A stretch of DNA of 25,711 nucleotides. Origin: an uncultured Deferribacteres bacterium (GTDB taxonomy: Bacteria; Zhuqueibacterota; Zhuqueibacteria; Zhuqueibacterales; Geothermadaptataceae). The notes below the pieces were generated by a model, which saw nothing but the letters and a program-made list of their open reading frames with translations, was not told the DNA's origin and searched no databases. Every line of letters starts with the position of its first letter. Positions within the stretch are counted from its first letter, which is position 1. The position numbers were made by a program, and so were the translations under genes. The stretch is from the NCBI GenBank assembly GCA_964014485.1, contig CAXHAT010000115.1, forward strand, positions 1 through 25,711, given 5' to 3'. Shown here one piece after another: positions 1,267 through 25,560 of the stretch.

Positions 1267-1470
1267 AAACCGTCGCACGATAACGAATTTGTTATCCGCA
1301 AAAGTTATTTCCGTTAACGGCGCATTTTGCGTTTAAGAAATCGTTATGGTTGTGCGCAGACGCGGGGGGAAAGCGGTATTTGGTTAGGATTGAAAGAATA
1401 GCCTCAAATAATAGCAGGGTCGGCCCAGCCGATCTGTAAAGTAGTACTTTTTCTCATGGAGGAAACTTCA

Positions 1471-8953: not shown

Positions 8954-9981
8954 GCATTATGAGCAAGAAGAAGCAAAGAAAAGAAAAAGAACGGCTTTTC
9001 AAATCCGGGCAAATTCAAATGCTCGAACCGATCCCCGGCATGAGAATACGGCAGGGACATGTTCCAAAATTTTGGCAGCCGCTGGATGCGCCCGATTGGG
9101 TTGCTGCGGAAGAAGCCGAGCGTATGCGCCCGGATGATCCCGTCATCGGTTTTCACGTCAAGGGTCAGGCATACGCGATTCCGTGGTGGAACATCAAAAA
9201 TCATCACGTGGCAAATCTGGACTTGGATGGTACGCCGGTTCTCGTCATGCTCTGCGAAGCGTGCAGCAGCTTGGCGGCCTATTATCCCGTCAGCGGCGAA
9301 AAACGATTCAGGTTTCGTGTGACCGGGGCCTGGAATGGGACATTTACCATACGCGACGAAGAAGAAGAGACGAGTTACTGGTCTCCCGTTTTCGGTAAAG
9401 CAGTCCATGGCCCGCTCACAGGAACGACCTTTGAGCGCTTCCCGGTTTTTCTTTCTATTTGGAAAGAGTGGGCTGAATTATACCCGGAAACACGCGTGCC
9501 CTACGGCAAGGGCGAGTTAAAAACCGGCCATGGCAGTGAATTTTTTCCTGGCTCTCCGAGCAACGAACGCGGCATTAGCGACACGCTGCCCGTGCATGAC
9601 GAACGTTTGCCCGCAAATGATTTGGTGTTAGGCGTTCGAGTGAGTGACGTGACAAAGGCGTACCCGCTCAAAAGTCTCCCGCAAGATCGTAAGGTTATCA
9701 ATGAAAGTATAGGCGACGATGAAATAGCGGTTTTTTATCGTCCGGGAAGCTGGATGGCCACGGCGCGTTTTCGCAAAATTGGCGACAGGACGCTAAATTT
9801 TGAAACGCGTGATAAACAGATTATTGACGTTGAAACCGGCAGCGCATGGAACTTTCTCGGAGAGTGCATTGAAGGCGAATTCAAGGGCGAGCAACTGCCG
9901 TTTGTATGGTCGATGATGATGGAATGGCATCTCTGGCCGGCGCATTTCCCGGAAACGTTGATTTATGGAATAGACGGTTAG
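8950..9981 (+). CDS. DUF3179 domain protein with CxxC motif (tandem paralog)
   Basis: Same motifs (EPIPGM.IRQGH, IKNHHVANL, LCEACSS). GTGA overlap with the upstream stop; alternative ATG at 8959. Confidence 0.8.
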   Translation: MSIMSKKKQRKEKERLFKSGQIQMLEPIPGMRIRQGHVPKFWQPLDAPDWVAAEEAERMRPDDPVIGFHVKGQAYAIPWWNIKNHHVANLDLDGTPVLVMLCEACSSLAAYYPVSGEKRFRFRVTGAWNGTFTIRDEEEETSYWSPVFGKAVHGPLTGTTFERFPVFLSIWKEWAELYPETRVPYGKGELKTGHGSEFFPGSPSNERGISDTLPVHDERLPANDLVLGVRVSDVTKAYPLKSLPQDRKVINESIGDDEIAVFYRPGSWMATARFRKIGDRTLNFETRDKQIIDVETGSAWNFLGECIEGEFKGEQLPFVWSMMMEWHLWPAHFPETLIYGIDG

Positions 9982-10037
9982 GCTGCGTAATTTCTCGCGG
10001 AGTACGATGATTCATCGTCGCACTCAAGGCTGTTTAC

Positions 10038-10204
10038 CCGATGTTACGCACTCTTGGAAATTTCTCAAGCAGCACCAGACAAATGTCGCTTTTACGTCAT
10101 TCTCGCGCAGGCGGGAATCCAGTCAATCGCGCACAGCCCCTGGATTCCCGCCTGCGCGGCAATGACTCTAACAGGAGTTTCTTTGGCTTCATAGCTGAAG
10201 CGTT
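10038..10204. mobile_element. Composite non-autonomous element, copy A (left TIR present, right TIR degenerate), containing a dRS3-like REP doublet at 10096-10166
   Basis: Closely similar to 14972-15298 apart from that copy's insertion. Core GTCATTCTCGCGCAGGCGGGAATCC ... GGATTCCCGCCTGCGCGGCAATGAC. Confidence 0.8.
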
Positions 10205-10283: not shown

Positions 10284-11429
10284 ATGGATTTCAGTTTTAC
10301 TGAAGAGCAAATCGCGCTTAAAAAAGAGCTCACAAATTTTGCAAAAAACGAGCTCAATGAAAACATGTTGGAGCGTGATAAGGCGGGCGAATTTTCTCGC
10401 GAGAATTGGAAAAAATGCGCCGAAATTGGCGTTTTGGGCCTGCCGTTCCCAGAGAAATTCGGCGGCAGCGACGCGGATATTATCACGACGGCGATGGCGA
10501 TGGAAGGCTTGGGCTATGGCTGTCGTGACAACGGTTTGCTTTTTGGCATTAACGCACAAATGTGGGCGGTGCAAACGCCCATTCTCGAATTTGGCGCGCC
10601 GGAACAGCAAGACAAATACCTGGCGGCGCTGATTCGCGGCGATATAATCGGCGCGCACGGCATGTCCGAGCCTGACTCCGGTTCTGACGCTTTCAACATG
10701 AACACGACCGCTGAAAAAAAAGGCGACAAATACGTTCTTAACGGCTCAAAGACTTTCGTTTCCAACGGCCCTTCCGCAGACGTTTTTGTGGTTTTCGCCA
10801 CACTCGACAAATCGAAGGGCTTCATGGGCGTGACGGCGTTTTTGGTCGACCGTGACACGCCGGGAATGCGCGTTGGGCCAAACATGAGCAAAATGGGCTT
10901 GAAAACTTCGACGATTTCCGAACTGTTTTTTGATGATTGCGAAATTCCCGCGAGCTGTCTGCTTGGCGGCGAGGGCAAGGGCGCGAACGTGTTCAATGCT
11001 TCGATGGAATGGGAACGCGCTTCAATTTTGGCGAACTACGTCGGAGCGATGGAATTTCAGATCGAACGCTGCGTAAAGTACGCTCGCGAACGCAAGCAGT
11101 TCGGTAAGCCGATTTCGAAATTTCAAACGATTTCGAATCGCATCGTAGACATGAGATTGCGCCTGGAAACCGCGCGCTTGTTGCTCTACAAAGTTGCGTG
11201 GACGAAAAAAGAGTTCGGCAAATGTCCAATGGAAGCGGCGCTTGCAAAGCTTTATCTGAGTGAATCATTTGTCGAATCGAGTCTTGACGCAGTGCGCGTT
11301 TTTGGCGGTTATGGATTTATGAGCGAGTATGAGCTTGAGCGCGATCTGCGCGACTCGGTCGGTTCGATTCTCTACTCAGGGACTTCGGACATTCAACGCA
11401 ACATCGTCGCGCGACATATGAGACTTTAG
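10284..11429 (+). CDS. Acyl-CoA dehydrogenase family, probable L-prolyl-[carrier protein] dehydrogenase (PltE/RedW/Bmp3-like)
   Basis: MSEPDSGSD, NGSKTFVSNG, RKQFGKPI, FGGYG, YSGTSDIQR motifs. Lies directly before the adenylation, carrier and halogenase genes. Confidence 0.9.
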   Translation: MDFSFTEEQIALKKELTNFAKNELNENMLERDKAGEFSRENWKKCAEIGVLGLPFPEKFGGSDADIITTAMAMEGLGYGCRDNGLLFGINAQMWAVQTPILEFGAPEQQDKYLAALIRGDIIGAHGMSEPDSGSDAFNMNTTAEKKGDKYVLNGSKTFVSNGPSADVFVVFATLDKSKGFMGVTAFLVDRDTPGMRVGPNMSKMGLKTSTISELFFDDCEIPASCLLGGEGKGANVFNASMEWERASILANYVGAMEFQIERCVKYARERKQFGKPISKFQTISNRIVDMRLRLETARLLLYKVAWTKKEFGKCPMEAALAKLYLSESFVESSLDAVRVFGGYGFMSEYELERDLRDSVGSILYSGTSDIQRNIVARHMRL

Positions 11430-11436
11430 TCTGGGA

Positions 11437-11492
11437 GCAGTAAGCAGTAAGCAGTAAGCAGTAAGCAGTAAACGGTAAGCTGTAAACTGTGG
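11437..11492 (+). repeat. Heptamer tandem array (GCAGTAA)x5 plus 3 degenerate units (left arm)
   Basis: Read directly. Starts 7 bp after the TAG stop. Confidence 0.95.
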
Positions 11493-11508
11493 ACAGAATT
11501 TATTAGAT

Positions 11509-11564
11509 CAGCTCACAGCTCACAGCTCACAGCTCACAGCTCACAGCTCACAGCTCACAGCTCA
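11509..11564 (+). repeat. Heptamer tandem array (CAGCTCA)x8 (right arm)
   Basis: Read directly. Reverse-complement unit GCTGTGA matches GCAGTAA at 5/7 positions. Confidence 0.95.
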
Positions 11565-11701
11565 CCGATTGTAAAATCTCTGTCACACGCCTCGCCAGAC
11601 CTTGAGAACTGGCGGGTATGATCCTATGTTTGAAAAACGCGGTCAAGCTTTTTTCTCGAATAAACAGCACGGGAAGATAGAACAGCAACCATGGAGAAAG
11701 A

Positions 11702-13285
11702 ATGACCTGGCTTTTATCGCAACTGCTCTCGGACGGCGCCAAGAAATATCCGGGAAACGACGCCGTTGTTTTCAACGACGAAAAGATCACCTATGCTGAA
11801 TTGGACGCCTTGACCAATCGTATGGCGCGCGCGCTCAAAGAAGCGGGCGTACGTCGCGGCGATCGTGTCGGCGTTTACATCAACAAATCCATCTCCTCCG
11901 TTGCGAGCATTTACGCCATTCTCAAAGCGGACGCGGCGTATGTCCCGCTCGATCCCTGGGTGCCCGTCAATCGTCTCGCATTCATTATCAAAAATTGCGG
12001 CATTTGCTGCTTGTTGAGCGCTTCGAATAAACTCGACGGCGTCGCTCAAATGATCGGCGGCGAGAGTCCGGTGGAAAATGTCATTCTAACCGACGCACCG
12101 GCGACGGACCAGCGTCCTGAAGGCGCAAATTTTGTTGAGTGGAGCGACGTTCTGCAACAAAGCGACAGCGCGGTCAAGCAACAAAATATTGAAACCGACC
12201 TGGCGTATATTCTTTACACTTCAGGCTCCACCGGTGATCCGAAAGGGGTAATGATTACGCACCTGAACGCGCTTACGTTTGTCAATTGGGCGTACGAAAC
12301 GATTAAGCTGCATTCGGGCGACCGCACCACGAGCCATGCGCCGTTTCATTTTGATCTCTCCATTTTCGATCTCTACGCAACGGCCAAAGCCGGCGCGACG
12401 CTTTGTCTTGTGCCGACTGAGACTGCAAAATTCCCGGTCAAGCTGGCGCAATTTATTCAAGAGCAAAAAGTTACCGTCTGGTATTCCGTGCCCTCCGCCT
12501 GGGTGCTCATGCTCACACGCGGGAAAACCAACGAGATCGATTTTTCCGCTTTGCGAACGATCATTTTCGCGGGCGAAGTTTTTCCGATTAAATACTTGCG
12601 CAAATTAACCGAAACCGTGCCGCATGCTGAATTTTACAATTGGTACGGCCCAACCGAAACGAACGTCATCACTTCCTACAAGGTGGAAGCTCTGGCTCCC
12701 GAAAGGCGCGAACCGATTCCAATCGGCAAAGCCTGTGCAAATATGGACGTCTTCGCACTTGATGAACACGGCGGGATCGTGACTGAACCGGGGCAAGTCG
12801 GCGAGCTTTACGGGCGCGGTTCAACCGTAGCGCAAGGCTATTGGAACGACCCGGAAAAAACGCAACGCCTTTTCGCTCCAAACCCAATTTTGCCTCACTA
12901 CCACGACCGCACTTATCGCACCGGCGATTTGGTCAAACTCGATGAAAACGGGGACTACCACTACATCGGTCGACGCGATCATCAGGTGAAAGTGCAAGGG
13001 TATCGCATCGAACTCGGGGAGATAGAAACGGCGATTTTGAATTTGCCGGAAGTGGAAGAAGCGGCGGTCATACCGTTGCAAAACCAGGAGCAGCAAACCT
13101 ACTTGAAAGCTTTTGTCGTTCTGCGGAACGGCAATGAAATGAAACCGAATCAGCTAAGACGGCATTGCTCCCGGTGCGTGCCGAAATACATGGTTCCCGA
13201 AACAGTTGAATTTCGTGAGTCTTTGCCTAAAACGTCCACCGGCAAGACGGATCGGAAACAGTTGGCCGGCGAACTACAGCGATGA
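11702..13285 (+). CDS. Stand-alone amino acid adenylation enzyme, probable L-proline--[carrier protein] ligase (PltF/RedM-like)
   Basis: A-domain cores YTSGSTGDPKG, FDLS, NWYGPTE, YRTGDL, GRRDHQVKVQGYRIELGEIE, PKTSTGK. No C or T domain. Confidence 0.9.
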   Translation: MTWLLSQLLSDGAKKYPGNDAVVFNDEKITYAELDALTNRMARALKEAGVRRGDRVGVYINKSISSVASIYAILKADAAYVPLDPWVPVNRLAFIIKNCGICCLLSASNKLDGVAQMIGGESPVENVILTDAPATDQRPEGANFVEWSDVLQQSDSAVKQQNIETDLAYILYTSGSTGDPKGVMITHLNALTFVNWAYETIKLHSGDRTTSHAPFHFDLSIFDLYATAKAGATLCLVPTETAKFPVKLAQFIQEQKVTVWYSVPSAWVLMLTRGKTNEIDFSALRTIIFAGEVFPIKYLRKLTETVPHAEFYNWYGPTETNVITSYKVEALAPERREPIPIGKACANMDVFALDEHGGIVTEPGQVGELYGRGSTVAQGYWNDPEKTQRLFAPNPILPHYHDRTYRTGDLVKLDENGDYHYIGRRDHQVKVQGYRIELGEIETAILNLPEVEEAAVIPLQNQEQQTYLKAFVVLRNGNEMKPNQLRRHCSRCVPKYMVPETVEFRESLPKTSTGKTDRKQLAGELQR

Positions 13286-13360
13286 CCAGAAGAGTGAAAA
13301 CCGAGAATCAATAATTAGCATCAAGAGAGCAATCACTTCAAGCACCCAGGAGTAAGCACC

Positions 13361-13621
13361 ATGACGACGCAAGAACAATTGAAAGAGTATGTTTTGTCAG
13401 AGTTTATGTTTGATCAAAACCCGGAAGCGCTGACCGCCGATTATGATTTGTTGAATAACGGCGTGATCGATTCAATGGGCATTCTCGACCTGGTCAGTTT
13501 TATGGAAGAGAAGTTCGGCGTGCAGGTCGGCGATGATGAAATCACCCCCGATAATTTCCGTAATCTCGACACGCTGGTGAAAATGATTGAAACAAAAAGC
13601 GGCGCCGTTCAAGCTGCTTAA
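13361..13621 (+). CDS. Acyl/peptidyl carrier protein
   Basis: 86 aa, acidic, GVIDSMG phosphopantetheine-attachment Ser motif. RBS AGGAG. Confidence 0.93.
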   Translation: MTTQEQLKEYVLSEFMFDQNPEALTADYDLLNNGVIDSMGILDLVSFMEEKFGVQVGDDEITPDNFRNLDTLVKMIETKSGAVQAA

Positions 13622-13669
13622 CACGATTCTGCAACTGATGGCGAAAAATATAACTGACGGAGAGAGTCA

Positions 13670-14971
13670 ATGAACATTCCTGAATCCTGCGACGTCGTCG
13701 TTATTGGTGGGGGCCCCGGGGGAAGCACGGCGAGTACGCTGCTCGCTCAAAAAGGATACGACGTCGTACTGTTAGAGCGCGCGAAACACCCGCGTTACAC
13801 TGTTGGCGAAAGCTTGATCCCGCACTTCTGGAAGTATGCCGAACTCATCGGCGTGGATAAGAAAATCGATGAAGAAAATTTTGTTCAAAAGGCCGGCGGC
13901 ACGGTTGTTTGGGACGGCGTGATTCGGCAAATGCAATTCAAGAGCTTCGGCTATGGCAAGCCGGCGCTGCATGTTGAGCGAGACAGTTTTGATCATATTC
14001 TGCTTGAGCACGCCAAAGAACAAGGCGTGAAGGTTTTTGAAGAAGTGACCGTGACCAAGGTTGACCCTGAAGACCACAATTCAAAAGCGACTTATCGCGT
14101 CAACGGCGAAAAGGAATCGCGCGAAATTGCCTGTAAATTTATTATCGATTGCTCGGGCCAAAAAGCGCTGATCGCTCGCCAATTCGGCATGCGCAACATT
14201 GACGACGGCTTCAAATTCATGAGCATTTGGGGGTACTACGACGATTCCAAGTATATCGCCGCCGACGCCAAGGCTTACCCTTTCGAAATGCTGCGCAAAA
14301 TCCCGCCGACGACATTTGTGACCAACATCGATGAATGGGGCTGGGTGTGGCACATTCCGCAGCGTGAGAGCACCAGCGTCGGCCTGATTTTGCCGCAGGA
14401 CATGATGAAGGAAATCAAGTCGTCCGACGAATTGCTCGAAGAGTATTTCAAAAGACGGTGCATGGAAATCCCGCATTTGGACAAGCTGTTGGAGAACGCA
14501 ACCTACAAGGAAGGTCATTTCCACGTGATCCGCAACTATTCCTACAGCCCTGAAAAACTGACCGATTCCGGTTACTTCATCTGCGGCGACGCGGCGGCTT
14601 TCATCGACCCGATTTTTTCCATCGGCGTTGTGCTGGCCATGTATTCCGCCAACGTCGCGACCTGGGCGATTGATCGTTCGATGAAAAATCCGGCGTCGAC
14701 GGAGCGGAACCGGGCCATATTTGCCAAACAGTACAAAGCGCGCTACGAAGCCAGTCGAGCTTTGGCGCTGCCGCGTTACGGCTATGGCGGTGAAAACGGC
14801 GAATTGGTCAAGACTTCGATCAATTTTGAGACGCTGCTCGAGCAAGAGTTGATGCACGTCGTTTCTTCCATGACAACGCGTTCGGAGAATTTCAGCGAAA
14901 TGTCGAGGAACGTTGAGAAGCCTGTGATGGAATCTGACAAGTATCACGTCGTCGAAGAAATCGTTTTCTGA
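13670..14971 (+). CDS. Flavin-dependent halogenase (PltA/Bmp2-type, likely acting on a carrier-bound substrate)
   Basis: GGGPGG FAD motif, PRYTVGES, Lys in FVQKAGG, WVWHIP (WxWxIP), GDAAAFIDPIFSIG. Confidence 0.85.
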   Translation: MNIPESCDVVVIGGGPGGSTASTLLAQKGYDVVLLERAKHPRYTVGESLIPHFWKYAELIGVDKKIDEENFVQKAGGTVVWDGVIRQMQFKSFGYGKPALHVERDSFDHILLEHAKEQGVKVFEEVTVTKVDPEDHNSKATYRVNGEKESREIACKFIIDCSGQKALIARQFGMRNIDDGFKFMSIWGYYDDSKYIAADAKAYPFEMLRKIPPTTFVTNIDEWGWVWHIPQRESTSVGLILPQDMMKEIKSSDELLEEYFKRRCMEIPHLDKLLENATYKEGHFHVIRNYSYSPEKLTDSGYFICGDAAAFIDPIFSIGVVLAMYSANVATWAIDRSMKNPASTERNRAIFAKQYKARYEASRALALPRYGYGGENGELVKTSINFETLLEQELMHVVSSMTTRSENFSEMSRNVEKPVMESDKYHVVEEIVF

Positions 14972-15298
14972 CTGATGTTACGCACTCTTGGAAATTTCTC
15001 AAGCAGCATCAGAGAAACGTCGCTTTTACGTCATTCCCGCGGAACAGGCTGTTGCAGAATAGAAAATTTCTCAATCGCGGCCTTAATTTGTGAAGCGAAT
15101 GAGCGATATAGTTGCACGTGGGAAGCTCGCTGTAGCTTTGTCGCGAATTTTATTAGGCATGATCTTATGGAAAATCTATTCTGCAACAGCCTGGGAAGCG
15201 GGAATCCAGGGGCTGTGCGCGATTGACTGGATTCCCGCCTCCGCGGGAATGACTTTAGCAGGAGTTTCTTTGACTTCATAGCTGGCGCGTAACATCAG
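14972..15298. mobile_element. Composite non-autonomous element, copy B (MITE-like, 12-13 bp TIRs), containing a dRS3-like REP doublet and a nested MITE
   Basis: TIRs CTGATGTTACGC (14972-14983) and GCGTAACATCAG (15287-15298). Flanked by TTTCTGA and TTTCTAA. Homologous to 10038-10204. Confidence 0.85.
15045..15193. mobile_element. 149-bp MITE with perfect 19-bp TIRs and a 4-bp GGAA target-site duplication
   Basis: CAGGCTGTTGCAGAATAGA (15045-15063) and TCTATTCTGCAACAGCCTG (15175-15193). GGAA at 15041-15044 and 15194-15197. Absent from copy A. Confidence 0.92.
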
Positions 15299-15330
15299 TT
15301 TCTAATAAACAAAAGCACGACGGAAGTATT

Positions 15331-16242
15331 ATGCAAGCCCCCTATCCTGAAAGTTCGGGTGAAATTTCAAAATCGGACCTTCACTATCTTGCAAAAAAAC
15401 GACGGCGGTGGGAACGCGAATTTTCGCACACCAAGAGCAAACAATTGCGTTGGCACACTGGGGACGTGCCGGAAACGCTGCAGTCGTTTTTTGAAAAATA
15501 CGATCCGCCGAAAGGATTGGCTGTAGATTTGGGCTGCGGCATAAGTCCTTCGACAGCGTTTATTGCTGAGAAAGGGTTTATGCCCGCGGTTGGTCTTGAC
15601 ATCGCTTTGTCGGCTGTTGTTAAGGCGCAAAAAATGAGCGGCGAACTTTCTGTAACGCCGGATTACGTCGTTGCGGCCGCGCCTTTCCTGCCTTTTAAAA
15701 GCGAGCAGGCCGGATTCCTTTATGATCGCGGCTGTATGCACGCTCTGCCCTCGACGCTTTGGCAGCCTTATCTAAGCGCAGTTTCGAGAATACTAAAGCC
15801 CGGCGGCTATTTTCAATTATGGACCAAAGCGCTGCCTGGCTTGAATTTGGAAAAAACGCCGATTTCGAACCTGGAAATCATGGATTTTGAAGCTTTCGAT
15901 TTTGATTTGAAGGACGGCAGACAGCGCCAAATCCATCACGTGATTTACAGGAAAAAATTATCCGCTGCGACGGAAGTCGCCGGGGAATCAGCGCCAGCGG
16001 AACGAGTTTTTATCGAAGCTTTGGCGCACCCCAAGACGGGGGAGCCTTTGGAATTGGCCGATGATCACTTTCTCGAAAGCGTCAATCGCGACATTGAAAC
16101 CGGCAAATTGCAAAATGCAGCCGGAAACCTGCTGAAACAACCTTTGACGGCCGCGTTAATCACGCAATCGAAAGGCGCCCTTTTTCCTGTCAAGCACGGC
16201 GCTCCCATTTTGTTGATCGATGAAGAAATAACGATTGAATAG
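15331..16242 (+). CDS. Class I SAM-dependent methyltransferase (TPMT/TehB-like) fused to a C-terminal Trm112-like domain
   Basis: VDLGCG motif I, GLDIA, YDRGCMHAL, LKPGG. C-terminus ALAHPKTGEPLELAD...FPVKHGAPILLIDE resembles Trm112/YcaR. Confidence 0.8.
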   Translation: MQAPYPESSGEISKSDLHYLAKKRRRWEREFSHTKSKQLRWHTGDVPETLQSFFEKYDPPKGLAVDLGCGISPSTAFIAEKGFMPAVGLDIALSAVVKAQKMSGELSVTPDYVVAAAPFLPFKSEQAGFLYDRGCMHALPSTLWQPYLSAVSRILKPGGYFQLWTKALPGLNLEKTPISNLEIMDFEAFDFDLKDGRQRQIHHVIYRKKLSAATEVAGESAPAERVFIEALAHPKTGEPLELADDHFLESVNRDIETGKLQNAAGNLLKQPLTAALITQSKGALFPVKHGAPILLIDEEITIE

Positions 16243-16251
16243 AGCGAACAT

Positions 16252-18048
16252 ATGAGCATTTGTGGAATTTGGAGAACTTGCGACGGCGAAACGGGCGATG
16301 AAGCAAGCCTGCAAAAGATGCTGGCTTCTCGAAGCGCCGCGGACCCAAAAAATATCAAGACCTGGAGCGATGAGAAGGCGGGCTTGGCTTTGGGTTTCAG
16401 CCGCCTGGAGGATGATGCGGGATTGGATGTACAGACGTCTTTTTTCAGTAAAGACGATCCGCGTTTTGTTTTTTTGGGCGAAGGTCGTTTTTCGCAATCA
16501 CCAACTTTTGCACATGATAAAACGCTGCCCGATTTGGCCGGGAATGCAGCGAACGGCGTTTTCCCGGAAGATATGTACGGCGGTTTTGTCATGGCCGCCA
16601 TTGATCGCAAAGCGCGCACGCTGACCCTTGGCCGTGACTCTTTGGGCGCAAGAATGCTCTACTGGACGAAGTTGCACAACAGCGGCGCCGTCATTTTTGC
16701 TTCAGAACTGCAAAGTCTGTTGGCGCATCCGCAAGTCCGTTTTGAAATCGATTCAACCGCTGCGTCCGTTTTCCTTGCCTTGGGCTATGTGCCTTCGCCT
16801 CTGACTATTTGCCGCGATATACAAAAACTCATCCCCGGAGAATATTTGCAATTTCAATCGGGGGAAAGCGCGTCCAAAAGCGCGATGATGCAAATCAAAC
16901 CGCGTGAAGTTGCGGCCAACGATCTTGACGACTACGGTCGAGCGGCGCGAAAAGAGATTATTGAAAGTGTCACGGCAAATCTGCCTCGCACCGGAAAGCC
17001 GGGCGTTTTGTTAAGCGGCGGCGCAGACTCAACGGCAATCGTCGGCGCTTTGCGGGAATTGGTCGGCAATGATTTTCAGACTTTTACAGCCGGCTACGAG
17101 CAGATGGAGAAGGACAGAGCCGGGCTTACGGACGTCACGTTTAGCCAAATGCTCGCGGAGAAGCTGAAGCTCAATCATCACGAAATTATGATTGGGCAAA
17201 ACGATGTCAGCGAAGAAAGAATTTTGCACGCGGTTCAAAATATGAGCGAACCCGCGGATACTTTGGGCCACATGGTTTCAGCGTCGTTTCTATTTGAAAA
17301 AGCGCGGGGCATGGGCGCGAATCTGGTGATGTCCGGTTCAAACGCTGAACATAATTTTGGCAGCCTTATTTGGCGGAAAGGGCTGAAATCCGGGAAAATT
17401 AAAGAAGATTCCAGTCGCGGCGCGGTTCTCGATTACTATGTTGAAAGCAGCGTTTCCCATCATAGCCGCTTGGGTCGCCTGTTGGTCGGAGCGCAAACGG
17501 ACGCACGAGAAAAAACTATTGAAGCGTTCGATCTGAGATGGCGTCACATGGATTTGGAAGACCGCTACAATGCGCTGTGCTGGTTGATGCTTACCGCGAG
17601 CGGTTGCGAGAGAATTACGCCTCTTTTGGACAGAATGAGCGCAAGTTTTCGCATTGACGTCCGGCACCCGTTTCATGAACCAAAATTATTTCAGTTTTCT
17701 CTGAACATTCCTTCCGTCTTTAAAGGTCGTGAATCGGAAAAAATGTATAAAGCCGTGTTGCTAAAAGCCTTTGACGACGTTATCGATCCGACAATTGCCA
17801 ATCGTCGCAAAGTCGGCTTTCTGGGGCTAAATTTGGAAGCGCCGGCGGTCGTTTCATTGATGGACTGTTTATTCGCAAAAGCGGCTCTTGCCAAGTCAGG
17901 CATATTTGAACCGGAAAAAACCGTGCTAACCGTCGCCAAAGCAAAAAAGAAAAATCGCGGGGTAGACAGAAAAACGCTTTGGCGGATTCTGATTCTACAG
18001 CTTTGGCAAGAAGTACATCACGCTGCTGCAACTGAAAAGAGGAGCTAA
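16252..18048 (+). CDS. Asparagine synthetase B-like ATP-dependent amide ligase (atypical N-terminus)
   Basis: RDSLG, FASE, LLSGGADS PP-loop, RHPF, RRKVGF, LWRILILQLW. Confidence 0.88.
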   Translation: MSICGIWRTCDGETGDEASLQKMLASRSAADPKNIKTWSDEKAGLALGFSRLEDDAGLDVQTSFFSKDDPRFVFLGEGRFSQSPTFAHDKTLPDLAGNAANGVFPEDMYGGFVMAAIDRKARTLTLGRDSLGARMLYWTKLHNSGAVIFASELQSLLAHPQVRFEIDSTAASVFLALGYVPSPLTICRDIQKLIPGEYLQFQSGESASKSAMMQIKPREVAANDLDDYGRAARKEIIESVTANLPRTGKPGVLLSGGADSTAIVGALRELVGNDFQTFTAGYEQMEKDRAGLTDVTFSQMLAEKLKLNHHEIMIGQNDVSEERILHAVQNMSEPADTLGHMVSASFLFEKARGMGANLVMSGSNAEHNFGSLIWRKGLKSGKIKEDSSRGAVLDYYVESSVSHHSRLGRLLVGAQTDAREKTIEAFDLRWRHMDLEDRYNALCWLMLTASGCERITPLLDRMSASFRIDVRHPFHEPKLFQFSLNIPSVFKGRESEKMYKAVLLKAFDDVIDPTIANRRKVGFLGLNLEAPAVVSLMDCLFAKAALAKSGIFEPEKTVLTVAKAKKKNRGVDRKTLWRILILQLWQEVHHAAATEKRS

Positions 18049-18050
18049 AG

Positions 18051-19838
18051 ATGGCCGGCATTTACGGTTATTTTTGCTACGGAGAGCCTGAACCCGGAAT
18101 AGCGACCGCCTTTTTTGAAGCTGTCAAGAAAGGAGCGCCCGCCGTAGAAGGTCAAAAACAAACTTTCAAAAGCGCCGACGGCTCAGCGGCGATGTATTGG
18201 GAATCGAGCAGCGATGAATCGACGCCCGTTGTTGAAGGCAATGCTAACGCGCCGATCATTTTCACGGACGGCTGGTTTTGCACAAGCGATGAACCGTCTT
18301 CCCAGGCTTTTGTACAGACGAACGAGCGCTCAAGAAAAATCGCGGCGTCGTTGGAAAAAGGCGCGGACTGCGGCATACGGGGCAATTACGCGACGGGCTG
18401 CTGGAATCCCGCCGAACGAACGATGATGATTTCAGCGGATCGTTTCAATACCAAGACTTTGTATTACACAGTTGTGCCTGAAAAGAATCTGTTCGTTTTT
18501 GGATCGCGACTCAATGTGCTGACCAATTTCTCTGGAGTTCGGAAAAAAGTCTCACAGGCAGGCTTGGCGGCATACTTGATTTACGGCTTTTTGCCTGCGC
18601 CGTTGACCCCTTATGAGAACGTCTGCAAAGTTTTTCCAGGCGAAGTTTTGCGCATTGACGCGCGCGGCGAAATCGTCAAGTCGCGCCCCCGAACAGTCGT
18701 TCTGAAGCCGGATCACGAGGCCAGCTACGAAGAACATTGCAAATCCACGCGAGAAAGCCTCTTGAGCGCTGTTGAGTTTTATACCACGCAGTATGGCGAG
18801 GTCGGGAATCTTTTAAGCGGCGGGATTGACTCAACGCTTATGCTTGCGGCGCAGAGCAAGTTCAGTGATAAGCCGATAAAAGCTTTTACGCTTGACTACG
18901 ATGATGTTCAAAAAAACAGATATGAAGTCTCCGATTTGAGATATGCGCAATACGCGACGAAACTTTATGGCGCTGAGCATTTTCCGTTAATTCGGGAAAG
19001 AGAGTCGGTCGGGCTTGGTGAGTTGGAGCGTATCGCGCCCTATTATGATGAACCGATCACGACCTTGACGCACGGCGTGACGACGGACGCTTTGCTGGAG
19101 CTTGCCCGAGCTAAAGGCGTCAAGCATTGTATCACCGGCAACGCAACAGGCCCGCTTTATGGTTTGGTCGCCTGGAAAGCGACGCAGCGAAAAATGCGCA
19201 AAGGCAAAATCAACAGCGACGAAGACATATTGGACGGCTACGGCAAGACGGCGAATTGCGACTTGACGTGGGTTTCGGAGCTCTTGCCGGGACTGGAAGA
19301 AGCGCCGATAGAGATCACCAATCGCATTTTTACGCCCTATCGCGAGATGTATGAGGCGGAATCTATCTACGAGCGATTTATGAACATCCGGCTGATTATG
19401 CAAGCCGGGCAGCGCGTTCTTGGCATGAAGGAAGCCGTTGCGCGCCAACGCGGCGTATCGTGCTGGCATCCCTTTGTCCATCCTGACGTTCACGCGTCTG
19501 CAATTCGCATCCCGGGTCGCTATAAGGGCGAGTTTGACCTGGCGAAAAGCAAGGCGGTTCTTGTTGACGCTTTCCGCGACATGATCCCGGAAAAAGTGGT
19601 CACGCGACCCAAGGTCGGCCTGCCAAGTTCCGTTCTTGACAAACGCGAAACGCTTGTCCGCTATTCCGGGGAGAAGCTGACGCGCGAACGCCTGTCCGAG
19701 ACGGGCATTCTAAATCCAAAATTCGTAGCGGATCTTTTTGAGAAAGCGCAAACGAAGGAAGGATTGAAACGATCGGCGAAGCTTCTGCGCAATCTGACGA
19801 TGCTGCAAGTGTGGGCGGAAGCGAATTTACTCAGTTAG
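18051..19838 (+). CDS. Asparagine synthetase B-like protein (no N-terminal Cys; degenerate second Asp motif)
   Basis: LLSGGIDS, YDEP, HPFVH, RPKVG. Begins MAGIYG, 2 bp after the upstream stop. Confidence 0.85.
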   Translation: MAGIYGYFCYGEPEPGIATAFFEAVKKGAPAVEGQKQTFKSADGSAAMYWESSSDESTPVVEGNANAPIIFTDGWFCTSDEPSSQAFVQTNERSRKIAASLEKGADCGIRGNYATGCWNPAERTMMISADRFNTKTLYYTVVPEKNLFVFGSRLNVLTNFSGVRKKVSQAGLAAYLIYGFLPAPLTPYENVCKVFPGEVLRIDARGEIVKSRPRTVVLKPDHEASYEEHCKSTRESLLSAVEFYTTQYGEVGNLLSGGIDSTLMLAAQSKFSDKPIKAFTLDYDDVQKNRYEVSDLRYAQYATKLYGAEHFPLIRERESVGLGELERIAPYYDEPITTLTHGVTTDALLELARAKGVKHCITGNATGPLYGLVAWKATQRKMRKGKINSDEDILDGYGKTANCDLTWVSELLPGLEEAPIEITNRIFTPYREMYEAESIYERFMNIRLIMQAGQRVLGMKEAVARQRGVSCWHPFVHPDVHASAIRIPGRYKGEFDLAKSKAVLVDAFRDMIPEKVVTRPKVGLPSSVLDKRETLVRYSGEKLTRERLSETGILNPKFVADLFEKAQTKEGLKRSAKLLRNLTMLQVWAEANLLS

Positions 19839-19852
19839 TGAGGTTTTCGATT

Positions 19853-21094
19853 ATGGGAAAAACGATCAAGCATGATGTTGCCGTTATTGGCGGCGGGCCG
19901 GGCGGACTTTCCGCTGCATTGTTCTTAAAAAAAGCCGGCGTGAGTCCGGTGATAATCGAGAAACAGACTTTTCCGCGTTACCACATCGGCGAATCGTTCA
20001 CCGGGGAAGTCCGCAAGGTATTGACGCGTTTGGACCTGGCGCCGAGCATGCTGAAAGCGGAGTATCCGGTTAAGTACGGCGTGAAGGTTTTCGGCCCTGG
20101 GGGCAAAAATTCTTTCTGGGTCGGCGTGGCGGAAAGAGACGAAAAATCGGTGCAAAAACCAAGTTGGACCTGGCAGGTGCGCCGGAGTAAATTTGACAAA
20201 ATGTTGCTCGATACGGCGATAGAACGCGGTGTTGAATATTTGCCGTGCGAAGCCAAGGAGCCAATCATTGAAAACGGCATTGTCGCTGGCGTGCGCATTG
20301 AAACGCCCGGCGGAAAATCGGACGACGTTCAGGCCAAAGCTGTGATTGACGCTTCCGGCCCCGCCACTTTTCTCGCATCAAAGGGTGTAACCGGGCGCAA
20401 GGATCGCGGCAGATATGACAATCAGGTGGCGGTGTTTTCGCAAGTGGTCGACGCCGTTCGCGATCCAGGCGAGGATGCGGGTAACACGCTTATTTTTTAT
20501 CAAAAGAAACATCATTGGGCGTGGTTTATTCCCATTGACGCCAAGAACACCAGCGTGGGCGTAACAGTTCCGGCAGGGTATTTAAAGGCGCAAAAGCTTT
20601 CGAAGGAAGCGTTTCTCAAGCAAGAGTTGCGCAGCCTGAACAGCGAATTAACGAAACGCATCACAAATCTGGATTTCACCGAGGAAGTGCGGGCCTGTTC
20701 GAATTTTTCGTACCAGGTGGAAAACTTTACTGGCAGAAATTTTATCTGCGTCGGCGACGCACATCGTTTCATTGATCCTATATTTTCACTTGGCGTTTTT
20801 CTGGCGATGCGCGAAGGTGAAATAGCGGCGGAAGCGATCATTGATTTTCTCGCCGGCAAGTTGAACGGCGAGGGAAATCCTTTTGCCGAATATGAACGCT
20901 ACGTGGATGAAGGGCAAGACGTTGTGCAGGCTTTGCTGGACACGTTCTGGGAACACCCGTTGGCCTTCGCGCTCTTCGCGCATAAACGCTACAAAGAAGA
21001 AGTCATCGATACTTTTGCCGGACGCATCTACGGCGAGGAAGGTCGAAACAATAAGGCGGTTATTGCTATGCGAAAGCTTCTGGCGAAGCAATAA
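19853..21094 (+). CDS. Flavin-dependent halogenase (second copy)
   Basis: GGGPGG, PRYHIGES, Lys in PVKYG, WAWFIP, GDAHRFIDPIFSLG. Start set at ATG 19853 (GAGG upstream), which avoids overlap with the previous gene. Confidence 0.83.
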   Translation: MGKTIKHDVAVIGGGPGGLSAALFLKKAGVSPVIIEKQTFPRYHIGESFTGEVRKVLTRLDLAPSMLKAEYPVKYGVKVFGPGGKNSFWVGVAERDEKSVQKPSWTWQVRRSKFDKMLLDTAIERGVEYLPCEAKEPIIENGIVAGVRIETPGGKSDDVQAKAVIDASGPATFLASKGVTGRKDRGRYDNQVAVFSQVVDAVRDPGEDAGNTLIFYQKKHHWAWFIPIDAKNTSVGVTVPAGYLKAQKLSKEAFLKQELRSLNSELTKRITNLDFTEEVRACSNFSYQVENFTGRNFICVGDAHRFIDPIFSLGVFLAMREGEIAAEAIIDFLAGKLNGEGNPFAEYERYVDEGQDVVQALLDTFWEHPLAFALFAHKRYKEEVIDTFAGRIYGEEGRNNKAVIAMRKLLAKQ

Positions 21095-21143
21095 TTTCTA
21101 ATAACTTTTCGAGGTGGTTAATGCGACTGTGGAGAATATAGCA

Positions 21144-22163
21144 ATGGAAAAAAACTACCGCCTGTTTAAGAATCCGATTTGGATCGGGGCCGGTTTTGTC
21201 TGGGCCGGGTGGCTCGCGATAATGCTTTTGGGGGATCACTGGCATTACTTTACCACCAATTATTTTATGTCGATCACAATGGTGTTCGGCTCGTTTATCG
21301 CCGGCGCCACGAGCGAGGGCGGCGGCGCCGTAGCGTTTCCTGTTATGACGCTTCTCTTCAAAATCCCGCCGCATATTGCTCGCGATTTTTCTTTTTGCAT
21401 TCAAGCCGTCGGCATGATGGCCGCCGCATTCACGATTTATTGCATGAAAGTTCAGGTTGAATGGCGCGCGGTGATCTACGCCGGGCTTGGCGGCGCTATT
21501 GGCGTCGCAATCGGTCTGGACGTTATTTCACCCATGCTGCCGCCTGCATACACGAAGCTCTTTTTTGTCAGCACATGGTTGAGCTTCGCCGCCGCATTGT
21601 TTTGGATCAACCGTTATAAAAATCGCAAAACGCACAGTGAAATTGTAAACTTTGAGTCAAAGCATATCGGGCTTTTGTTCGTCACCGGAATTATTGGCGG
21701 CTGCGTCAGCGGCATTACCGGCAGCGGCCTGGATATTGTGACCTTTTCTCTACTGGTGCTGACCTTTCGCGTCGATGAAAAAGTCGCCACACCCACCTCA
21801 GTTGTTCTCATGGGCATGAACGCCTTGGTCGGCGTGATTTGGCGCGAAGGCGTGACCACCGGCATGGCCGCGGCTGCATGGGAATACTGGTATGTTTGCG
21901 TGCCAATTGTCGTCGTCGGCGCGCCTGCCGGAGCCTGGTTTATTAAGAACAAGTCGCGATTGTTTGTCGCGGGGTTTCTTTACTTGTCGATATTGATCCA
22001 ATACGTCGCGGCTTTGGCGATTATCCCAATGTCAAGAGAGTTGATCATTTTCACTGCCTCCGTCGCTGTTGGCGGACTGCTCTTTTTTGGTCAGATGGCG
22101 TATTTCGGCAAGCGCAGATTAAACTGGCTAAACAGCACCTCGCCCAAAGAAGCGCGTACTTAG
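21144..22163 (+). CDS. TauE/SafE (TSUP) family membrane permease
   Basis: Multiple TM helices with repeated Gly-rich motifs GATSEGGGAVAFP and SGITGSGLD, plus ATPTSV and GAPAG. ATG 21144 has GGAG at 21131. Confidence 0.85.
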   Translation: MEKNYRLFKNPIWIGAGFVWAGWLAIMLLGDHWHYFTTNYFMSITMVFGSFIAGATSEGGGAVAFPVMTLLFKIPPHIARDFSFCIQAVGMMAAAFTIYCMKVQVEWRAVIYAGLGGAIGVAIGLDVISPMLPPAYTKLFFVSTWLSFAAALFWINRYKNRKTHSEIVNFESKHIGLLFVTGIIGGCVSGITGSGLDIVTFSLLVLTFRVDEKVATPTSVVLMGMNALVGVIWREGVTTGMAAAAWEYWYVCVPIVVVGAPAGAWFIKNKSRLFVAGFLYLSILIQYVAALAIIPMSRELIIFTASVAVGGLLFFGQMAYFGKRRLNWLNSTSPKEART

Positions 22164-22209: not shown

Positions 22210-22243
22210 AATGCTTGAAAGTATCGAGTTCAGAACAACCTTT

Positions 22244-22320: not shown

Positions 22321-22359
22321 CACAGGACTGACAACAAAGATTTCAGGAAGGAATCTAAG

Positions 22360-23754
22360 ATGAAACAGGAATTGATTTTGCGCAAACGCCTGGCTTTGGC
22401 GTTGGGCGTTTTGGGAGCGTTTTTCGCTTCACAAGGCATGGCTCAAAGAGCCTGCCCCAAATTTCACAATGTTCGTTATCAGGACGATTACAGCGCTTTT
22501 GAGAAAGGCGATTGTCTCATGGGCGTGATAAAGCAAATTCCGCTTGGCGGCGCTGCGCATGTTTCGTTTGGCGGGCAGTATCGCGCCAGATTTGAATTTG
22601 ATAAAAATCGCGCGTTCGGCGCCAGTGATCCGAAATCTCAAGATTATGTTCTAAACCGAGTTTTCCTTTTTAGCGATTTGCGACTTGGTGAACGGGGCAA
22701 AATCTTCGCTGAATTCAAGGCTGCGGGCGTGAACAACAACGACCTGCCGCCGTCGCCGATTATGCGCGACAAGCTGGATATTCAAAATCTGTTCGCTGAA
22801 TACTGGCTGCTAAATAGGAAAAAAGCCAGATTTGGCGTTCGCCTTGGGCGACAAGAGATGCAGTTTGGCAAACAGCGCCTGATTTCGCCTTTGGATTGGG
22901 CGAACACCCGCCGTACTTTTGAAGGCGCACGAGTTTTGTTTTCGCGTTCAAAGTGGGAATTCGATGCTTTTCTTATGCGGCATGTGCCCGTGAAAGCGGA
23001 AGCGCTCAATAAGGCGGATAGTACGACTCGTTTCTCGGGTTTCTATATTCAACGCAAATGGCGCTTGGGAAAAGCTTCCGCCTACTTTCTTTCGCTGGAT
23101 AATAACACGACGGTTGCGCCAAGCGGCTCTGCGACGGGCTTTAGTCGTCAGACCGTGGGGGCGGCTTGGGACGGCGCTTCAAAAAATATCGATTGGAGTA
23201 CGGAAACCGCGCTGCAATTTGGCGATTTTGCCGGCGAAGATATCGGCGCCTGGATGTTGACGCTCAATGCCGGATATACTTTTAAGCGTCACGCAATGAA
23301 GCCGCGCCTGGGCTTGGGCCTCGATCTCGCTTCCGGAGACGCTGACCCAAACGACGCGAAATTACAGTCGTTCAACCAGCTTTTCCCGCTGGCGCATGCT
23401 TATTTCGGCTGGACGGATCAAGTCGGCAGAAGCAATTTGCGCGCGCTGCAATTTAACTTTCGCGCCAATCCGCATGAGCGTGTTACCGTCAAGCTTTTCA
23501 TACATGATTTTCATCTTTTGCAAGCCCGAGACGCTTTTTACAACGCCGCCGGAGCTGCGGCGCGTTCAGACATCGAAGGGCTTTCCGGTAAGGACGTCGG
23601 GCAGGAAGTTGACGTTGAGATAAGCTACAACATTAACCAACATATCGGGCTGGCGATAGGCGCGGCTGTGTTTGTTCCAGGCGAGTTTATCAAAAAAACC
23701 GGCGATTCCGAAGCGCATCGGTTGATTTATTTCATGATCCCGGTTAAGTTTTGA
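22360..23754 (+). CDS. Alginate export (AlgE-like) family outer-membrane beta-barrel protein
   Basis: Signal peptide (...SQGMA), GGQYRARFE, RLGRQEMQFGKQRLISPLDWANTRRTFEG, ASGD..P....FNQLFPLAH, terminal Phe. Confidence 0.85.
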   Translation: MKQELILRKRLALALGVLGAFFASQGMAQRACPKFHNVRYQDDYSAFEKGDCLMGVIKQIPLGGAAHVSFGGQYRARFEFDKNRAFGASDPKSQDYVLNRVFLFSDLRLGERGKIFAEFKAAGVNNNDLPPSPIMRDKLDIQNLFAEYWLLNRKKARFGVRLGRQEMQFGKQRLISPLDWANTRRTFEGARVLFSRSKWEFDAFLMRHVPVKAEALNKADSTTRFSGFYIQRKWRLGKASAYFLSLDNNTTVAPSGSATGFSRQTVGAAWDGASKNIDWSTETALQFGDFAGEDIGAWMLTLNAGYTFKRHAMKPRLGLGLDLASGDADPNDAKLQSFNQLFPLAHAYFGWTDQVGRSNLRALQFNFRANPHERVTVKLFIHDFHLLQARDAFYNAAGAAARSDIEGLSGKDVGQEVDVEISYNINQHIGLAIGAAVFVPGEFIKKTGDSEAHRLIYFMIPVKF

Positions 23755-23940
23755 TGGCATGATTGCTGTATTTAAGCGTTTCAAACGGATGTGAGGCGGC
23801 GGTTTCAGGGAAGAATCCACCAATCTAAAGTTCGAAAATGTAAAAACGCCGGTAATGATTACAAAACCGGCGTGTAAAATTTTCACCCAAAGACGAACCG
23901 CGCTCCGCAACAAGCACTGCACCTCATGGGAGAACCCAAA

Positions 23941-25545: not shown

Positions 25546-25560
25546 GTCTGGAAATAGTGA

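Follow-up and report, generated by a model that had tools for sequence, protein, structure and literature searches.

The 25.7-kb contig CAXHAT010000115.1 of an uncultured Deferribacteres bacterium, analysed along its whole 25,711 nucleotides and hereafter called the window, carries a gene cassette that probably makes an undescribed halogenated compound. The cassette encodes a flavoenzyme of the acyl-CoA dehydrogenase (ACAD) fold, a stand-alone adenylating (A) enzyme, a small carrier protein and two flavin-dependent halogenases (Hal1 and Hal2), the halogenase genes being separated by genes for a methyltransferase (MT) and for two homologues of asparagine synthetase B (AsnB), here named Asn1 and Asn2 (Table 1). 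The loading, oxidation and halogenation steps, assigned by homology, would turn proline into a halogenated pyrrolyl-2-carboxyl group bound to the carrier, with a probability that we put at about 0.85. The later fate of this group is read more tentatively, at about 0.4: the halopyrrole-2-carboxylate may be methylated and joined to amines by the two AsnB homologues, acting as ligases in the style of PdmN, without any nonribosomal peptide synthetase (NRPS) and in this lineage only. Halogenated pyrroles act as potent antibiotics and as signals, and their carrier-bound precursor is so far described only as feeding a polyketide synthase (PKS), an NRPS or a thioesterase.

All genes of the window that are regarded as real lie on the plus strand, and the open reading frame (ORF), Pfam and NCBIfam calls agree with the eight co-oriented genes that an earlier note on this DNA had placed at positions 10284-21094. 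The A enzyme scores 397 bits on TIGR01733 (cut-off 317), and its best single solved relative over the whole length is an L-proline--[L-prolyl-carrier protein] ligase (6o6e, 328.6 bits). The same enzyme leads in the region of the specificity pocket (149.3 bits), ahead of a second proline ligase, 7thn_B, which was co-crystallised with PigG (101.3 bits), and of DltA (81.9 bits). The nine pocket positions, chosen after the GrsA numbering and read by eye from the alignments, are DLFSIAWVI, compared with DLFSIAWVC in 7thn_B and DLLSLAFVC in 6o6e_B. In the same columns, 17 A enzymes of other cassettes follow the pattern DL[FL][SYTM][ILFM]A[WLF]V[CI]; in locus L062, a second and unrelated A enzyme has DYYTTTMRT there. 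The pocket is, as far as its sequence tells, of the proline type. The carrier bears the Ser of GVIDSMG and scores 20.2 bits on the Pfam PP-binding model, just under the cut-off of 20.8. Its PDB matches include PigG, PltL and, in third place, the chain co-crystallised with 6cxt_B.

The best solved relatives of the ACAD are 4irn, annotated as 'Prolyl-ACP dehydrogenase' (434.9 bits), 6cxt_B (349 bits) and 5zw0, an L-prolyl-[peptidyl-carrier protein] dehydrogenase (310.9 bits), while ordinary acyl-CoA dehydrogenases reach at most 301 bits. The three best specific PDB relatives are thus prolyl-carrier dehydrogenases or their co-crystal partner. Hal1 finds CmlS (172.3 bits), 8zop (168.1 bits) and PltA (138 bits) in the PDB, and shows GGGPGG, the Lys of FVQKAGG and GWVWHIP in the alignments. 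The best solved relative of Hal2 is Bmp2 (5bva, 250.4 bits), matched over residues 19-416, nearly the full length; GxGxxG, K88 and WxWxIP are invariant among four orthologues, and the catalytic Lys and the two other motifs are thus present in Hal1 and Hal2 alike. By eye, the alignment shows L, L and V in Hal2 at Y302, F306 and A345 of Bmp2.

These are the four enzyme types of Bmp1-4 from marine Pseudoalteromonas (tetrabromopyrrole, pentabromopseudilin), whose logic, according to PMC5577590, consists of a proline adenylating enzyme, a carrier, a flavin dehydrogenase and a halogenase acting on the carrier-bound pyrrole. The likeness extends to the PDB matches, the second best of the ACAD and the third best of the carrier being two chains of 6cxt. 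Unlike the Bmp system, the window has a free-standing carrier of 86 aa with no thioesterase domain, and its operon adds a second, CmlS-like halogenase, the MT and the two AsnB-type ligases. The A pocket, the carrier and the ACAD model matches also resemble PltF/PltL/PltE/PltA (pyoluteorin) and PigI/PigG/PigA (prodigiosin), the solved ligases nearest to the pocket being PltF and one of the PigI type. However, those modules pass the pyrrole to a PKS or ketosynthase (KS)-type partner, and none was found in the window, in the contig joined to its left end (C276) or in the related genome G013 described below; the NCBIfam scores of the locus are also under the equivalog cut-offs. The proline-type A enzyme, the type II carrier and the FADH2-dependent halogenase that mark modules of the Plt, Pig and Bmp type are all predicted here, and the PKS or NRPS partner, or the releasing thioesterase, is the part that these three sources lack. 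Another comparison can be made with AnaB/AnaC/AnaD, where 4irn is the top relative of the ACAD and a stand-alone A enzyme is likewise accompanied by a carrier. That pathway is not known to have halogenases and feeds a PKS, whereas the locus has two halogenases. The earlier note had read the first four gene types as a module that converts prolyl into pyrrolyl-S-carrier, and the pocket, the ACAD relatives and the Bmp2 match all favour this assignment.

The Pfam families of KS, condensation (C) domain, thioesterase (TE), flavin reductase and phosphopantetheinyl transferase (PPTase) have no match among the 20 plus-strand ORFs of the window (19 of at least 80 aa; the ORF at 1-1266 is cut by the contig start), in agreement with the earlier note. 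For the flavin reductase and the PPTase, the absence holds for the window and not for the genome, where PPTase-like genes and two flavin reductases are encoded on other contigs. Since the window is one complete contig (C115) of an 8.4-Mb genome (G000) in 465 contigs, 97% complete, the absence of a PKS from it says little on its own. In the whole genome KS matches number 21, and at least 12 of these fall in ORFs of several kb on C159, C114, C269, C298, C101, C326 and C3; an NRPS is also encoded outside the window, and this points to one or several large, separate assembly-line clusters with at least 12 modular type I KS domains. The halopyrrolyl-S-carrier could conceivably prime such a modular PKS in the style of pyoluteorin or pyrrolomycin, the window being PKS-free through fragmentation. 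The KS matches on fragmentary contigs fit this idea, as does the repeat in which the contig ends on the right; the related genomes, the loci with a close Hal2 relative and the left neighbour, which holds ABC exporter and kinase genes, make it improbable.

A match to Hal2 at E <=1e-40 was found in 30 of 167 genomes of the phylum (G000 included), with orthologues of 57-62% identity only in four others, G013, G014, G024 and G011 (two frames in the last). By tblastn, G013 and G011 share with the window a conserved core of DUF5666 (twice), the APH-like kinase, both ABC exporters, the ACAD (73-74% identity), the A enzyme (64-65%), the carrier (55-56%), Hal1 (67-68%) and Hal2, and G014 has a rearranged set. 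In the G013 genome, which is 100% complete, condensation domains are lacking throughout, and KS matches number just two, both of FabF size. G011 has no condensation domain either, and its KS of modular size are all off the cassette contig, with none in the 40 kb around the cassette. With no NRPS in these genomes and no modular PKS by the cassette, the cassette works without either in this clade.

A survey of the genomes of 185,579 species with the Hal2 alignment kept 78 loci. In 32 of these the Hal2 relative is at least 43% identical, and these close loci come from metagenome-assembled genomes labelled Chloroflexota, Verrucomicrobiota, Gemmatimonadota, Acidobacteriota, Planctomycetota and others. 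Within their fetched flanks, many of them on short contigs, the A enzyme occurs in 16, the carrier in 13 and the ACAD in 11, and KS, C, TE or AsnB matches occur in none of the 32. A cassette that operates where PKS, NRPS and thioesterase do not exist implies that another acceptor chemistry must be at work. A pathway without PKS or NRPS, as the earlier note had put forward, is therefore borne out by the G013 genome and by the close loci. The gene combination, which that note did not recognise, still has no counterpart: an AsnB homologue is paired with the halogenase in one of the 78 loci only (L118), where the halogenase is just 32% identical and the locus has KS and C (PKS/NRPS) matches of its own.

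The two AsnB homologues are, in the catalytic sense, as devoid of Cys as had been claimed, with Ser2 in Asn1 and Ala2 in Asn2 at the nucleophile position. Asn1 begins with MSICGIW and Asn2 with MAGIYG. Ordinary AsnB homologues begin with MCGICG and four paralogues and relatives with MSGICG or MSGFCG, a comparison which puts Ser at the nucleophile position of Asn1 and makes its Cys4 the second, non-catalytic Cys. MAFFT had placed Cys4 under the canonical Cys2, and a retained catalytic Cys in Asn1 was rejected on the basis of these paralogue N-termini. In both proteins the glutaminase half is degenerate and without the RGPD, NGE and DTE motifs, while the PP-loop is intact (SGGADS and SGGIDS), with S255, G256, G257, D259 and S260 invariant in alignment A1. 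Of asparagine synthetase B, what is kept is thus the PP-loop ATP pyrophosphatase domain, not the N-terminal Cys or the glutaminase motifs. Both have common deletions relative to ordinary AsnB homologues, both fall under the TIGR01536 (AsnB) cut-off of 267 bits (Asn1 155.5, Asn2 112), and among solved structures the hydroxyamidotransferase 7ylz comes closest, with 81 bits.

Close relatives of these proteins were searched for among 5.8 billion proteins through a word-based index, from which very distant relatives may escape but close ones cannot. Asn2 has 121 proteins at E <=1e-10 among 7,999 scored candidates, the best of them 27% identical (a 358-aa fragment identical to the query is not counted), and Asn1 has 19 at 1e-20, with a best non-self identity of 28%. 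None of 45 pattern matches to Asn2 in a scan of genome contigs was confirmed as a relative, the best match among 41 related genomes is 27-28% identical, and a protein-cluster atlas returned only generic AsnB-like clusters. The nearest relatives of Asn2 (27-28%, with Ser2) belong to loci L042 (G022:C17) and L043 (G019:C63), which have in common RtcB, an AsnB-like protein, an ATP-grasp protein resembling D-Ala-D-Ala ligase, a secreted DUF5666 protein and a TolC-HlyD-MacB exporter; this system ties DUF5666 to the AsnB subfamily of Asn2.

A precedent for AsnB homologues of this kind is described in a preprint (bioRxiv 10.1101/2025.10.30.685158), where PdmN uses ATP, and no NRPS, to couple an aromatic polyketide acid with the amino acid D-Ala or D-Ser. 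There, an N-terminal Ser (Ala in one pathway) goes with the ligase and Cys, as in FdmV, with the amidotransferase, and two ligase-type homologues can share one cluster. Asn1 (Ser) and Asn2 (Ala), each with an intact synthetase domain, plausibly fit this ligase type and resemble PdmN and the proposed Tln4 and TlnF in their N-terminal residue, their PP-loop and their occurrence as two genes per cluster, the likeness being drawn from these features. The presumed acid differs, since it would be a carrier-derived halopyrrole here and not a type II polyketide. A literature search pairing a pyrrole-2-carboxyl halogenase with asparagine synthetase found nothing.

The gene upstream of Asn1 encodes the MT, whose PDB matches are YtkW (49.9 bits) and, for residues 225-300, XF2673 (37.5 bits), and which has homologues of 29-32% identity in the cassette loci L055 and L076. 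The genes from the MT to the permease TauE are tightly packed: 9 nt separate MT from Asn1, 2 nt Asn1 from Asn2 and 19 nt Hal2 from TauE, and Asn2 and Hal2 either overlap by 28 nt or, if Hal2 starts at ATG 19853, lie 14 nt apart, at a junction free of repeats. In G014, the neighbourhood of the cassette includes an O-methyltransferase, an NRPS of the order C-A-MT-PCP, a thioesterase, MbtH, a sulfotransferase, kinases and glycosyltransferases (GTs), and the NRPS module with the thioesterase would yield an equivalent product by the classical route. The amide reading is drawn from the ligase-type N-termini, the tight packing from MT to TauE, the recurrence of methyltransferases and this NRPS counterpart.

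The proposed pathway would begin with the A enzyme, which loads L-proline on the carrier once a PPTase encoded elsewhere has activated it. The ACAD-fold flavoenzyme would oxidise the prolyl-S-carrier to pyrrolyl-2-carboxyl-S-carrier, and the Bmp2-like Hal2 together with the CmlS-like Hal1 would then place halogen on the ring with reduced flavin that a reductase, also encoded elsewhere, supplies. The acyl group would then be set free as an acid by an enzyme that is not among the window genes, and methylated by the MT, pyrrole N-methylation being a guess. Each AsnB homologue may convert a carboxylate into its acyl-AMP for reaction with an amine: the first ligase would place an amino acid or amine on the halopyrrole carboxylate, and the second would either extend the new carboxylate or add a second amine. 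The ABC pair would export the product, and TauE with the AlgE-like porin would bring halide in. If halopyrrole acids are indeed coupled to amines in this way, the two enzymes would represent a new means of forming amide bonds on halogenated heteroaromatic acids, driven by ATP and independent of NRPS, and would give the first enzymology of NRPS-free halopyrrole carboxamide formation. Sponge bromopyrrole alkaloids, for which no biosynthetic genes are known, contain a bond of this halopyrrole carboxamide type. The MT-Asn1-Asn2-Hal2 block, of 5.8 kb and with two ligases that have no relative above 28%, is a clonable candidate.

Several observations weigh against this pathway, two of which concern its oxidation step. 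The ACAD stays below the curated NCBIfam cut-offs (PigA 443.4 bits for a cut-off of 500, RedW 407.9 for 650), and its top relative 4irn is the anatoxin-pathway enzyme AnaB, which stops at the pyrroline after a two-electron oxidation. Were the ACAD of the window to stop there too, the unit would be a pyrroline-carboxyl-S-carrier, a dehydroproline and not a pyrrole, and the clear lead of 4irn over 6cxt_B and 5zw0 speaks in that direction. This outcome seems scarcely probable, as two halogenases are conserved with the ACAD, one of them closest to the pyrrolyl-S-carrier brominase Bmp2, and these need an electron-rich ring; the PigA model, moreover, scores as high (443 bits) as AnaB does.

Other adverse points concern the later steps. 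No thioesterase or other release enzyme was found among the window ORFs by Pfam, though enzymes of the AsnB type need free carboxylates. In the four related genomes the cassette is retained although MT, Asn1 and Asn2 are missing, which implies a fate of the halopyrrole that needs none of them; tblastn with the window proteins found these three, DUF3179 and TauE absent from the related cassette loci. Ser2 AsnB homologues also occur in kinase, glycosyltransferase and sulfation loci without pyrrole genes (C242 and C154), which may mean that such enzymes serve that system rather than the pyrrole. Finally, C115 breaks off on its right in a heptamer-repeat element common to many contigs. The amide linkage proposed in the earlier note therefore retains the ligase-type N-termini in its favour and has the four relatives and the missing release enzyme to its disadvantage.

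The related genomes also bear on a simpler outcome, in which a polyhalogenated pyrrole or its acid is released, possibly decarboxylated, as in the Bmp pathway, and MT, Asn1 and Asn2 are unrelated passengers. Relatives with two or three halogenases and no ligase would suit this outcome, as would Bmp2 being the best solved relative of Hal2 and the block adjoining an element resembling a miniature inverted-repeat transposable element (MITE), the mark of a recent insertion. It is nonetheless quite unlikely, for the carrier has no thioesterase domain, unlike Bmp1 (PMC5577590), the block shares one apparent transcription unit with Hal2 and TauE, and methyltransferases recur in cassettes elsewhere.

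A serious reading, possible though less probable than the amide pathway, takes the halopyrrolyl group for an acyl decoration of an exported glycan. As a donor of the Dlt kind, the halopyrrolyl-S-carrier would pass the halopyrrole-2-carbonyl group to a polymer of the envelope, be it an exported glycan, a glycolipid or another, whose synthesis would fall to the APH-like kinases, sulfotransferases and glycosyltransferases encoded in the wider locus. Asn1 and Asn2 would amidate or ligate amines on carboxyls of this acceptor, not of the pyrrole. The likeness to D-alanylation by Dlt consists of a stand-alone A enzyme and a small carrier with export-linked genes, the A enzyme scoring 332 bits on a DltA model. 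The difference is that DltA models stay below their cut-offs and that the window has no MBOAT, AT3, DltD-like or LpxL-type gene by Pfam, and thus no membrane acyltransferase beside the A enzyme and carrier to complete such a relay.

The neighbourhoods of the cassette in other phyla argue for a glycan. In 17 cassette loci of other phyla, 150 ORFs with a length of 150 aa or more were scanned with Pfam, a further 33 ORFs of seven of these loci, mostly with known ACAD, A or halogenase matches, having been left out. No KS or condensation domain appears among the 150, and 14 of the 17 loci have at least one glycan-type family. The families recorded are GT or PMT families (seven loci), Wzx/Wzy/Wzt/ABC-2 (seven), Acyl_transf_3 (four), sulfotransferase (four), BD-FAE esterase (three), sugar nucleotidyltransferase (three) and LpxL-type acyltransferase (two); a class I methyltransferase lies inside the cassette in four loci, and a permease of the MFS or Na/H type beside the halogenase in four. 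The surface polymer that the earlier note had allowed as an acceptor gains weight from these neighbours. The related genomes of the phylum, too, flank the cassette with GT1/GT28/GT4, sulfotransferases and kinases, and the best models for the ABC pair of the window are lipid and glycan exporters.

Similar gene content is spread over the rest of the genome. About nine APH-like kinases of 330-480 aa, orphans without a solved or named relative, are all encoded on C115, C276, C242, C350 and C154. These contigs also hold GT1/GT4/GT28, sulfotransferase and PAPS genes, ABC exporters, DUF5666, a second type IX secretion system (T9SS) protein, two AhpD-like genes and two more Ser2 AsnB homologues, and probably represent one or two large loci shattered by repeats. 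The occurrence of such families with PAPS synthesis genes and Ser2 AsnB homologues on C350, C242 and C154 is again in keeping with a glycan. On C242 (L037:8132-9215), two tandem 'peroxidase-related' genes of the AhpD/CMD family have a GT, kinases and an AsnB homologue as neighbours. The Cys-based debrominase of the Bmp pathway is of a small redox type similar to this pair, and a role of the pair as dehalogenases is conceivable.

What makes the glycan less likely is, besides the acyltransferase that the window lacks, a tblastn of the genome with three AT3 and two LpxL-type proteins, which gave a single weak LpxL-type match (26%) on C299, a contig untied to the locus; BD-FAE and GDSL proteins from other cassettes likewise found nothing beside the locus. 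Furthermore, amidotransferases of exopolysaccharides normally retain the Cys nucleophile, MT, Asn1 and Asn2 lie in between the two halogenase genes and close up against Hal2, and the glycan acceptor is argued from gene neighbourhood alone. A literature search for pyrrole-2-carboxyl groups placed on polysaccharide through an acyl carrier protein or acyltransferase gave nothing beyond a decarboxylation review, the accessible part of PMC8269204 contains nothing on the neighbourhoods of pyrrole halogenases, and a search for a halogenase biosynthetic gene cluster in KSB1 found nothing. Halopyrrole groups on exported glycans, if they occur, are chemically unexplored so far.

The kinases and DUF5666 proteins suggest still another role for the AsnB homologues, as isopeptide or lactam cyclases in a peptide or protein modification system, where LxmK-like kinases would act on a ribosomally made substrate, for example DUF5666, followed by ABC export. 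There are weak NCBIfam matches in this sense, to a lasso cyclase (NF033535, 82 and 62 bits), a macrolactam cyclase (NF033561, 45 and 65 bits) and LxmK (36-42 bits), DUF5666 genes stand beside Ser2 AsnB homologues in G022 and G019, and the ABC pair resembles peptide exporters too. Such a system is very improbable: the scores are far below the curated cut-offs (525, 300 and 315 bits, respectively), inspection of the window ORFs showed neither a leader peptide nor a lyase nor a lasso B-type protease, and no transglutaminase-like or PqqD-like gene was found among the 20 of them by Pfam. The DUF5666 protein, moreover, models as a well-folded beta-barrel (pLDDT 90.3, with only weak PilY2/CusF-like fold matches, E 7e-3 or worse) and not as a precursor peptide. 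The specific reading as a ribosomally synthesised and post-translationally modified peptide was rejected on the lasso-cyclase and LxmK scores.

Several genes around the cassette seem to be concerned with the supply of halide. In G011 and G014, Hal2 is followed by an NMT1-type binding protein, a permease, an AlgE-like porin and a third halogenase, which is fused to an ABC ATPase, and in G013 by the binding protein and permease, after which the contig ends. The fusion ORFs (L024:17687-19783 in G011 and L023:6552-8654 in G014), lying in an importer operon, suggest that halide import is coupled to halogenation. The lineage-specific TauE of the window occupies the slot that the binding protein and permease have in G011, G013 and G014, and we infer for it a role in halide supply; in L051, a TauE homologue of 34% identity follows the halogenase. 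The porin of the window has orthologues of 51-52% identity inside the importer operon of G011 and G014, and this position among a binding protein, a permease and an ATPase makes anion uptake likelier than polymer export, the latter being the less likely role.

These elements can be joined in a broader picture, which we hold to be doubtful, where the halopyrrole cassette has a second way of working, free of PKS and NRPS, in many uncultured phyla and with its own halide uptake. The uptake would be served by TauE, a permease of the MFS or Na/H type or the importer ATPase-halogenase fusion, together with the AlgE-like porin. The general fate of the halopyrrole would be acylation of glycans by membrane or LpxL-type acyltransferases, and its fate in the window a small N-methyl-halopyrrole carboxamide or pseudo-peptide made by the orphan AsnB ligases.

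Table 1. Predicted genes and repeat elements of the window, with positions on the forward strand and the basis of each call.
Feature	Position	Strand	Basis
APH-like kinase 1, 5' end cut by contig start	1..1266	+	Pfam APH 31.2 bits
DUF5666 protein, tandem small beta-barrels, no signal peptide	1456..1923	+	Pfam DUF5666 46.2 bits
APH-like kinase 2	2376..3386	+	Pfam APH 50 bits
Two fused permease-ATPase ABC exporter genes (ABC1, ABC2)	3584..5659, 5656..7566	+	ABC_membrane + ABC_tran
Two tandem DUF3179 genes	7904..8953, 8950..9981	+	Pfam 162 and 142 bits
MITE-like repeat copy 1	10015..10203		direct repeats D4, D5; inverted repeats I1, I4
Prolyl-S-carrier-protein dehydrogenase, ACAD fold	10284..11429	+	PDB relatives, PigA/RedW models
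Stand-alone proline-type adenylating (A) enzyme	11702..13285	+	TIGR01733, pocket comparison
Type II carrier protein, 86 aa	13361..13621	+	PP-binding, PDB matches
Flavin-dependent halogenase 1 (Hal1), CmlS/8zop-like	13670..14971	+	Trp_halogenase 105 bits
MITE-like repeat copy 2	14949..15290		contains spurious ORF 14975-15226
Class I SAM methyltransferase (MT), TPMT-like, C-terminal Trm112-like tail	15331..16242	+	TPMT 39.7, Methyltransf_25 39 bits
AsnB homologue 1 (Asn1)	16252..18048	+	Asn_synthase 123.5 bits
AsnB homologue 2 (Asn2)	18051..19838	+	Asn_synthase 102.7 bits
Flavin-dependent halogenase 2 (Hal2), Bmp2-like	19811..21094 (likely start ATG 19853)	+	PDB 5bva
TauE/SafE-family anion permease	21114..22163	+	TauE 88.3 bits
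AlgE-like outer-membrane porin	22360..23754	+	Alginate_exp 302.5 bits
Secreted protein, type IX secretion sorting tail	23926..25545	+	FlgD_ig, Por_Secre_tail

The locus extends to the left of the window. The first 54 bases of C115 are identical to positions 99-46 of C276, and across this join the frame of kinase 1 stays open for 36 more codons up to a GTG, giving a protein of about 450 aa like its paralogues; the open frame across the overlap indicates that the locus runs on leftwards onto C276, which holds two more ABC exporters and two more kinases. Bases 1-45 of C276, directly before the overlap, resemble a transposase sequencing adapter, and this adapter-like stretch is an assembly artefact at the junction. 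Rfam gathering and tRNA scans of the window found nothing, and a promoter and terminator scan gave counts not above those in shuffled sequence.

Among the remaining flanking genes, APH-like kinase 2 has orthologues of 42-43% identity in G013 and G011, and no kinase of this type has a PDB match better than E 0.013 or an NCBIfam identity. DUF5666 is kept beside the cassette in the same two genomes. The two ABC exporters, with 46-55% orthologues in G011 and G013 and an MsbA-related model as best NCBIfam match, below its cut-off, probably form a heterodimer. G011 also has the AlgE homologue. The type IX secretion protein, whose N-terminal 450 aa belong to no family, has a counterpart of 51% identity in the corresponding place in G011.

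Intergenic arrays of 7-nt tandem repeats (CAGTAAG, CTCACAG, CTAACAG and TTTACAG) are found at 11418-11571, 22230-22345 and 25528-25708, where they flank short unique cores. Identical arrays lie at the ends of many contigs of the genome (C242, C350, C154, C349 and others), and evidently break the assembly. The MITE-like element has internal inverted repeats and a further copy at the far end of C276, and its translation gives spurious 'MLRTLGNFSSS...' ORFs; the 83-aa ORF at 14975-15226 was rejected as a gene since it lies inside this repeated element. Copy 1 forms the right edge of the DUF3179 insertion and copy 2 the left edge of the MT-Asn1-Asn2 insertion.

The DUF3179 pair, which separates ABC2 from the ACAD, is an insertion specific to this lineage and is missing from the four related loci. 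It has a conserved CxxC, with C106 invariant and C109 nearly so in 50 sequences, and its model (pLDDT 92.7) gives weak Rieske-ferredoxin-like fold matches, at E 5.6e-3 or worse; there is no sequence match in the PDB. The family counts 5,308 representatives at E <=0.001, with a conserved His besides the CxxC, and is listed among selenoproteins in two reviews. We can only guess at a redox role, for instance in dehalogenation or the supply of flavin. In L049, a DUF3179 homologue lies 1.7 kb from the halogenase.

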